From Octopus vulgaris (lineage: Eukaryota): a DNA stretch of 64,000 bases. Every line of letters starts with the position of its first letter. Positions within the stretch are counted from its first letter, which is position 1. The notes beneath the pieces were generated by a model. It made no database searches. It saw nothing but the letters and a program-made list of their open reading frames with translations, and was not told the origin of the DNA. Shown one piece after another: positions 60,363 through 61,623 of the stretch. The position numbers and the translations under genes were made by a program. The stretch is from the NCBI GenBank assembly GCA_951406725.2, contig OX597827.1, forward strand, positions 77,500,001 through 77,564,000, given 5' to 3'.

Positions 60363-61623
60363 GCAGCAACAACAACAACAGCAACAACAACAGCAGCAAC
60401 AACAACAACAGCAACAGCAGCAACCACAAGCACCACACTCACAGCCGCCTTCGACAAGTTCTTCAGCCACTACAATGAATATGAGTATGCCATCAGGCAT
60501 GATAGTGAACGCCAGCATGGTCGGTATGAACATGAATGCCATCCATACCATGCATACCATGCATGCGGCCATGAACATGATGATGATCAAACGACACCCA
60601 ACGAGTAGTGAGAAAGAGGAGAAGCAACACAAGTGTGATGTTTGCCGCAAGACTTTCACTCGACGATCGGACCTGTTGAATCACCAGCATGCTGCTACGC
60701 TGAACGACGATGGCAAGCACTTCTATTGTTCGTTTTGCCGTAAAGCATTCCCCATCCGTGCTCGACTCAAGGACCATTTACGCACACACACCGGCGAGAA
60801 GCCGTTCCGGTGTGTCTACTGCGAGAAAATGTTTGCGCACCAGACCAACCTGAAGTCACATCTCCGTTTACACACTGGCGAAAAACCTTTCAAGTGCATC
60901 GTATGTAGTAAGGCTTTCTCGCACCAAACCAACCTGAAGAGCCACGAGCGCACGCACACGGGCTGCAAGCCGTACCACTGTGGATACTGTGGTAAAGCGT
61001 TTTCTCATCAGACAAACCTGAAGGACCATCAGCGGATCCATACTGGTATCAAGCCCTATCGATGCAGCTATTGCGACAAGGCCTTCAGCCATCAGACGAA
61101 TCTCAAAGACCACGAGAGGACCCACACCGGCGTGAAGCCCTTTCAGTGTACATACTGTGATAAAGCATTCAGTCACCAGACGAACCTAAAGGACCACCAG
61201 AGGACCCACACGGGCGAGAAGCCTTACAGTTGTTCCTACTGTCAGAATGCGTTCAGCCATCAGACTAACCTGCGAGATCACGAACGAACCCATACGGGCG
61301 TGCGACCGTACCAGTGTCGCTTCTGCACGAAAGCGTTCAGTCACCAAACGAACCTGCGAGATCATGAGAGGACTCATACGGGTGAAAAACCTTACCAGTG
61401 CGCGTACTGCGAGAATGCGTTCAGCCATCAGACCAACCTGAAGTGCCACGAGAGGCTACACACCGGTGAAGCTGCCAAGACGTTCACGTGCACGGTCTGT
61501 AACAAAGGTTTTGCTCACCAGACTAATCTGAAGGTCCATGAACGCACTCACAACAGGGGGCCGGCGGCGGTGGCGGCGGTAGCGGCGCAGGAGCAGAACA
61601 AGGCCCCTCCGCCGAAAGGATGA
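59656..61623 (+). CDS. C2H2 zinc-finger transcription factor, 655 aa; His/Gly-rich and polyQ N-terminus; 10 canonical fingers plus 1 atypical finger
   Basis: Uninterrupted ORF with an in-frame upstream stop at 59620. C-X2-C-X3-F-X5-L-X2-H-X3-H motifs are joined by TGEKP/TGxKP linkers. GC-rich coding-type composition contrasts with the flanks. Confidence 0.95.
60280..60423 (+). repeat. Coding CAA/CAG tract encoding 48 glutamines
   Basis: 144 nt of mixed CAA/CAG codons between PP and PQAP. Confidence 0.95.

Follow-up and report, generated by a model that had tools for sequence, protein, structure and literature searches.

How a tandem zinc-finger array can hold one and the same recognition helix in nine consecutive fingers, while the codons spelling that helix differ from finger to finger, is the question raised by a gene of Octopus vulgaris. 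The gene lies in a 64,000-nucleotide stretch of DNA (the window; positions 77,500,001-77,564,000) of a contig termed here C14, part of a 2.8-Gb genome that is spanned by the whole-genome counts given below. Just one frame in the window contains several fingers; it lies at 59656-61623 on the forward strand and is predicted to encode a C2H2 zinc-finger protein of 655 residues. A candidate splice acceptor (AG, 59653-59654), preceded by a pyrimidine-rich stretch, lies two bases 5' of the ATG on the same strand; an exon further upstream was not located from the sequence. Contigs of two libraries, X18 (presumed, as a guess, to be RNA) and X3, cover 60470-61700 without gaps.

Read along the forward strand, the predicted protein opens with MESLQPMYSSS (59656-59688), similar to the start motif MY(S/P)xQ(S/P)(M/V/I)Y of the gene family considered below, followed by a low-complexity tract rich in His, Ala and Gly (59896-60072), 48 glutamines encoded by a mixture of CAA and CAG (60280-60423) and a Met-rich spacer (60475-60585) that is kept in an orthologous contig. 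Finger 1 (60634-60690) is atypical (CDVC...HQH) and resembles the degenerate first finger of the same family, C..CRKGF.R..NL.NHE, while finger 2 (60721-60789) presents the helix IRAR with D at position 6, a paralog, L071, having VRAR and the same D. Fingers 3-11 (60805-61551) each present the helix HQTN, with helix codons starting at 60838, 60922, 61006, 61090, 61174, 61258, 61342, 61426 and 61516, and are followed by a tail of 23 residues and the stop codon (61552-61623), in which the family's C-terminal motif is not found. When the 655-residue sequence was compared with Pfam, zf-C2H2 was matched in 10 stretches (E 4.7e-49), with no match to KRAB, SSXRD or PR/SET domains. The protein is built of Kruppel-type C-x2-C-x12-H-x3-H units joined by TGEKP-type linkers; among fingers 3-11, seven of the eight linkers are canonical (TG.K/RP), the exception being TGEAAKT before finger 11, which is two residues longer. 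The fold of the array agrees with that of DNA-binding arrays, those of the PRDM9/KRAB type being the nearest solved structures by sequence. Elsewhere in the window, segments at 56280-56470, 57790-58120 and 61775-61965, one with long inverted arms near 57900, are dispersed-repeat-like and may be SINEs.

Every element of the array as originally described could be read from the sequence. The nine fingers share the form F(S/A)HQTNL(K/R)xH, and position 6 reads S, S, D, D, D, D, D, C and V in fingers 3-11. Threonine is encoded by ACC, ACA, ACG and ACT, His, Gln and Asn each by both of their codons, and the serine preceding HQTN by codons of both families (TCG, TCT, AGC and AGT). Given that position 6 varies and the last linker is longer, only fingers 5-9, each with D at position 6, are identical at positions -1, 2, 3 and 6 together. 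Comparison of the 36 pairs of fingers gave a pS of 0.85 and a pN of 0.23 overall, so that silent sites are saturated and the low inter-finger dS expected of recent duplication was not found. At HQTN itself, pN was 0 over 360 pairwise nonsynonymous sites, as opposed to 0.52 at position 6 and 0.47 in those hairpin columns that vary. Expressed by columns, all four helix positions are invariant but only one of 13 other non-structural positions is (Fisher p=0.002, the columns not being independent of one another).

These values bear on the possibility that the helices owe their identity to recent duplication or to gene conversion still under way. No exact match between two fingers exceeds 22 bases; the one of that length, shared by fingers 8 and 10 (61244 and 61412), may be an old conversion patch and as such speaks for that process. 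Against it, nucleotide identity from finger to finger is only 52-75%, and 0.68 of four-fold sites differ (124 comparisons), a value within the range obtained when third positions were shuffled (0.74, range 0.65-0.80), meaning that common ancestry has left no measurable trace at the silent sites. The fingers, moreover, differ from each other far more than from their orthologous counterparts, and young arrays on other contigs of the same genome display the opposite pattern. Recent duplication or conversion is therefore largely refuted and, in our judgment, highly improbable.

Comparison with another species was afforded by a single contig from X20, an RNA library labelled as invertebrate metagenome, that covers 60479-61354 and comes from a diverged relative. 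This contig differs from the window at 49 of 876 bases, with no gaps. The 40 differing letters that were listed fall in 39 codons, 36 of them silent and three replacement, such that dS lies between 0.23 and 0.31 and dN between 0.004 and 0.018, bounds which include the nine letters not listed. Together with the mutual saturation of the fingers, these values support the view that the identity is due to purifying selection and not to copying or conversion of recent date, and the array is accordingly, as judged from these sequences, maintained by selection. As the fingers are saturated relative to each other while diverging little between orthologs, they must be far older than the split between the two species. 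Of the four libraries compared, two were not informative on orthology, X3 being near-identical to the window and X8 offering no spanning piece.

Within fingers 3-9, the listed differences comprise 22 silent and one replacement. In fingers 3-8, whose helices comprise 24 codons, the helix changes amount to three silent ones and that same replacement, a Q to R at helix position +1 of finger 8, which is the sole listed replacement within the array. The expectation that the helices would be conserved in an ortholog was thus largely borne out in the one relative compared, albeit with one helix residue changed. By contrast, the statement that hairpin residues vary freely holds only between fingers of the same protein, since no hairpin replacement was seen in fingers 3-9 among the listed ortholog differences. 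At the depth of this ortholog, constraint thus appears to cover the whole finger and not the helix specifically. It was also noted that two replacements are A-to-G changes, at 61262 (the Q to R in the helix of finger 8) and 60604 (S to G), so that A-to-G accounts for two of the three replacements as compared to two of the 37 silent letters (p=0.02). As X20 is an RNA library, these replacements may reflect either A-to-I recoding or species differences.

The search for further orthologs relied on several approaches. Two protein searches with the array, in each of which the best 120 of some 7,900 candidates were considered, returned only generic zinc-finger proteins of at most 53% identity; HQTN appeared in none of the 120 best matches listed in the first, a result that is not evidence of absence. 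Nothing was recovered among 50 candidates when the N-terminal 85 residues served as query, neither the protein, entered from each of ten starts (one of them non-Met), nor any of six paralogs had an exact match, and in the ESM Atlas the array led to generic zinc-finger clusters and the C-terminal motif to no usable match. A squid or cuttlefish (decapodiform) ortholog was not found in these protein searches, which were swamped by generic arrays. Orthologs of the HQTN gene have thus been found in one relative only, that represented in X20.

To see how far the array stands alone in its own genome, the pattern F.HQTNL..H was sought genome-wide. Of 22 matches, nine belong to this gene, two to the paralog L071 and 11 to places elsewhere, of which the nine fetched include no zinc finger and the other two read like repeated non-finger sequence. 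A dispersed, non-finger repeat translating as CFHHQTNLQIH in short frames was observed in L042, L043, L046, L047 and L048 and, on C21 and C24, at two places. Genome-wide, the short codon pattern for HQTNL occurs at control level (1782 vs 2002). When the helix is set aside, likeness among the nine fingers (0.45) is only slightly above their likeness to fingers of paralogs (0.26-0.44), a margin that does not establish descent from one finger.

Next, related genes were considered. Sixty stretches were fetched around matches to a three-finger query (150 listed of 250, one per locus, representing most loci), and these yielded 61 frames with at least five fingers, including that of the window. Keeping the longest frame per locus left 31 ORFs in a C14 group and 29 others, the latter mostly from C27-C29, with one from C14. 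In this set, which was chosen by likeness to the HQTN query and may favour such helices, the helices are more alike than the hairpins in 30 of the 31 C14-group ORFs as compared to one of the 29 others (L096, on C24). Median inter-finger divergence at four-fold sites is 0.71 in the C14 group and 0.31 in the others. In three genes recovered only by virtue of the C-terminal motif, likeness is again greater among helices than among hairpins, though in one of them the margin is slight (0.29 vs 0.28). The HQTN gene itself lies in the C14 clusters, has one coding exon and saturated silent sites, and shows greater likeness among helices than among hairpins. Accordingly, it is not a one-off but the extreme member of a C14 family of about 34 genes. 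The contrast originally drawn with PRDM9-like arrays holds and extends to the octopus genome itself, where the C14 group stands against the other zinc-finger ORFs. Overall, that first interpretation was supported as regards purifying selection and PRDM9, whereas its reading of one triplet about nine times over is only a possibility, given the variable position 6 and the longer last linker; it also overlooked that helices repeated or periodic over saturated codons are a habit of the entire family.

Most family members begin with MY(S/P)xQ(S/P)xY and many contain a degenerate first finger; by eye, the HQTN gene carries divergent forms of both, namely MESLQPMY and the first finger CDVCRKTFTRRSDLLNHQH. 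With its closest paralog, L071, it has in common finger 2, the presence of HQTN fingers (two in L071) and the lack of the C-terminal motif. The C-terminal region of L071 instead consists of a long tandem seven-residue repeat of the SMSDSR type. Some 23 kb beyond the HQTN gene lies a convergent family member (L121:2559-4706, reverse strand), in which a block comprising a degenerate finger and two further fingers is internally duplicated, with a His-rich spacer between the copies. Outside the family, L096 contains five consecutive YSSH helices over saturated silent sites; the pattern is the same as that of the C14 family and apparently arose separately, judging from these sequences.

The longest run of identical helices in the family is nine, in the HQTN gene, with the next longest being six. 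Near-uniform paralogs nonetheless exist, with HQTT in eight of 12 fingers (L090), QRAN in eight of 11 (L091), QKAN in six of 10 (L062) and QRTN in six of 11 (L075). In other members, helices recur periodically over saturated codons, every three fingers in L078, L083, L086 and L122 and every four in L079, L080, L081 and L087, as in NQFF-QRGN-QKNC and NQFF-QKIN-QRGN-QKIN. The fingers with FF helices are preceded by a four-residue linker in 29 of 31 cases and may serve as spacers.

The HQTN array could also be the product of frozen history, in which an ancestral helix of the family, close to QxTN, was multiplied by old duplications and each finger was then conserved separately, as part of an ordinary long or partial binding site, with no requirement for identity as such. 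The near-invariance of whole fingers between orthologs is compatible with this, as is the narrow helix vocabulary of the family, where Q occupies -1 in 252 and N occupies +3 in 209 of 363 fingers and the commonest helices lie one or two steps from HQTN. Long natural arrays, furthermore, often engage subsets of their fingers (PMC10287918). Yet frozen history does not readily account for the same fingers having a pN of 0.47 in the hairpin and 0 across the four helix columns, nor for the run of nine, given that no run exceeded five when the 363 helices of the family were shuffled 20,000 times among the 31 genes. Frozen history is hence considered unlikely, if worth keeping in view, relative to selection for the identity of the helices.

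Unlike the HQTN gene, most of the family ends in a shared motif. The pattern W-E-N-N-Y-x-W-S-R-G-F was matched in 25 of the 30 other C14-group ORFs, was weak in L063 and had no match in L069, L070, L071 and L076. It is absent from the HQTN gene, from all three forward frames up to position 64000 and from the next 18 kb, and since this motif is missing, the HQTN gene is, on its sequence, an atypical member of the family. A fuller form, YL(H/Q)EMP(Q/P)(S/N/T)WENNY(L)W(S/P)RGFPM, was seen at L089:4672-4791 and 24 other C14 loci and occurs in octopus and cuttlefish proteins. All 25 genome matches to the motif are on C14, and the two members tested gave no Pfam match for it. We consider the motif a family marker and a candidate effector domain.

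A profile search with the C-terminal motif against 1.84 billion representative proteins returned 16 matches, of which the 11 best were fetched and all contain the motif; matches 12-16 are repeat-rich and, by their look, chance matches. Ten of the 11 (P0249 being left out) belong to clusters named for O. vulgaris, O. sinensis, O. bimaculoides, Argonauta hians or Sepia pharaonis, or unnamed, with no name from outside the coleoids among them. A paralog's protein, P0241, which its source names O. vulgaris, has the same fingers as L079. Labels of 'KRAB' on Sepia relatives are source names only. P0258 was taken to be cuttlefish-like on the grounds that P0243, which represents its cluster, is almost the same as Sepia P0242 at both ends; aligned finger for finger, it agrees with the octopus paralog L089 at 54 of 56 helix residues, 14 of 14 at position 6 and 67 of 84 in the hairpin. 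These similarities point to a conserved and apparently undescribed coleoid zinc-finger subfamily.

What the repeated helix might recognize can be addressed by the geometry of C2H2 fingers, in which residue -1 faces the third base of a triplet, +3 the second and +6 the first, and D at +6 may favour C. In a table of engineered modules, triplets with A in the middle (CAT, AAG, GAC, AAA and AAC) are paired with N at +3, and H at -1 is found with AGT, which ends in T, and with CGC, which ends in C (PMC7317221, Table 1), even if the code depends on context, with Asp6 and Asn6 specifying different bases in different fingers (PMC4330361). Each HQTN finger would then read one triplet, with N at +3 directed to a middle A and H at -1 to T or C, while the short residues at +6 would leave the first base loose. 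The predicted site would be (N-A-T/C)n, with the five identical fingers 5-9 as its core, and both strands of (AAT)n and (CAT)n could be read as (NAT)n. Identical fingers could settle in any three-base register, with binding expected to grow with repeat length; the polyglutamine and the His-rich N-terminal region may recruit or condense cofactors, and paralogs with uniform QRAN, QKAN, QRTN or HQTT may read other registers or repeats. We give about an even chance to the reading in which the nine fingers are old internal copies, purifying selection has kept HQTN the same in all of them, and the protein binds a microsatellite of three-base units with A in the middle, (CAT)n or (AAT)n being the likeliest, where it would regulate chromatin or transcription by way of the low-complexity N-terminal region.

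Five repeat classes were counted as overlapping 27-base (nine-unit) matches on both strands of the genome, giving 2.73 M for AAT, 0.48 M for ACT, 0.39 M for ATC (CAT), 0.14 M for ACC (CAC) and 0.064 M for AAC. Since nearly every triplet has repeats in abundance, these counts do not single out a target. Dense compound microsatellites (GGT, GAT, GTA and rotations, with GC skew of up to 0.68) were also noted in the window itself, at 8700-10600, 15900-21000 and 29600-35900.

Two other modes of action are to be weighed against recognition of a nine-unit repeat. In one, the protein binds multivalently to A/T-rich sites that are short or degenerate, each contacted by two to five fingers, and acts through avidity or DNA bridging with no nine-unit ruler. 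With S, D, C and V at +6, all of them short, one base in three is left loose, which would be in keeping with such behavior, as would the non-canonical last linker; homopolymeric dA.dT is indeed bound by ZNF384 (PMC8589989). The seven canonical linkers are nevertheless suited to continuous tracking, and strict identity at +1 and +2 exceeds what loose binding needs, making multivalent binding improbable. In the other, the repeated helix reads RNA, such as repeat-containing transcripts, or creates a repeated surface for binding protein. RNA binding is common among zinc-finger proteins (PMC11633308), and the FF-helix fingers of paralogs, nearly all of which (29 of 31) follow a four-residue linker, look unlike DNA readers; still, the classical N at +3, the canonical linkers and a fold as in DNA-binding arrays render a role in binding RNA or protein quite doubtful. 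Recognition of a microsatellite remains the preferred reading of the HQTN array.

Should this reading extend to the family, coleoids might hold an old, dedicated set of about 30 microsatellite-reading factors on the protocadherin chromosome, in which a tryptophan-rich effector motif would replace KRAB, uniform arrays would read A-rich triplet registers and periodic arrays longer units, millions of simple repeats would become regulatory or architectural elements, and A-to-I editing may retune helices. This broader proposal is tentative, and we think it possible but less than probable. It bears on the targets of cephalopod C2H2 proteins, which have been posed as an open question (PMC12513265), the usual model being an arms race with transposons. 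Two C2H2 regimes are apparent here, namely arrays that are young and diverse in their helices and a family, old and conserved, in which helices recur, and a helix repeated identically nine times offers the simplest possible binding prediction.

Some of this framework is already known, including the expansion of C2H2 genes in cephalopods, their clusters on chromosome 14 and the existence of old, coleoid-wide subfamilies. The expansions described by Holzinger et al. (2025; PMC12513265) are coleoid-specific, small, old, common to octopus and squid and highly expressed in neural tissue; the C14 family spans Octopus, Argonauta and Sepia; the main text of that study contains 0 occurrences of 'helix', 'motif' or 'microsatellite'. 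C2H2 clusters have been reported on O. sinensis chromosome 14, the protocadherin chromosome, and on orthologous chromosomes (PMC9795677, PMC9068888), and it is in such clusters on C14 that the HQTN gene lies; these reports, in the passages considered, give counts and positions but no division into an old class with repeated helices and a young class with diverse ones. In the literature searched, no account was found of the HQTN array, repeated helices, the C-terminal motif or microsatellite targets, although the supplements and Dryad trees of PMC12513265 may hold the family under another label.

Compared with known systems, the HQTN gene resembles arrays of the PRDM9/KRAB type in encoding a tandem C2H2 array in one exon, yet those arrays combine near-identical framework DNA with variable base contacts (PMC10547256), whereas here fingers of 52-75% identity have invariant residues from -1 to +3. 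Nearer in proposed function are binders of simple repeats. ZSCAN4 is described as a natural C2H2 protein that binds (CA)n. ZNF384 has repeated helices and polyglutamine, with the ZNF384/rotund/LIN-29 group carrying helices of the QLSH type rather than the HQTN of the octopus gene; to our knowledge, neither ZSCAN4 nor ZNF384/CIZ has nine identical helices. Both ZSCAN4 and ZNF384/CIZ, the latter a binder of poly dA.dT (PMC8589989), parallel the proposed role of the HQTN protein, but are single vertebrate genes for which orthology is unsupported. Finally, when an engineered finger array joined to an effector was directed to GGAA microsatellites, hundreds of these were turned into enhancers or silenced (PMC9374162). 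Such arrays are artificial, and the HQTN gene may, by analogy, be their natural counterpart.
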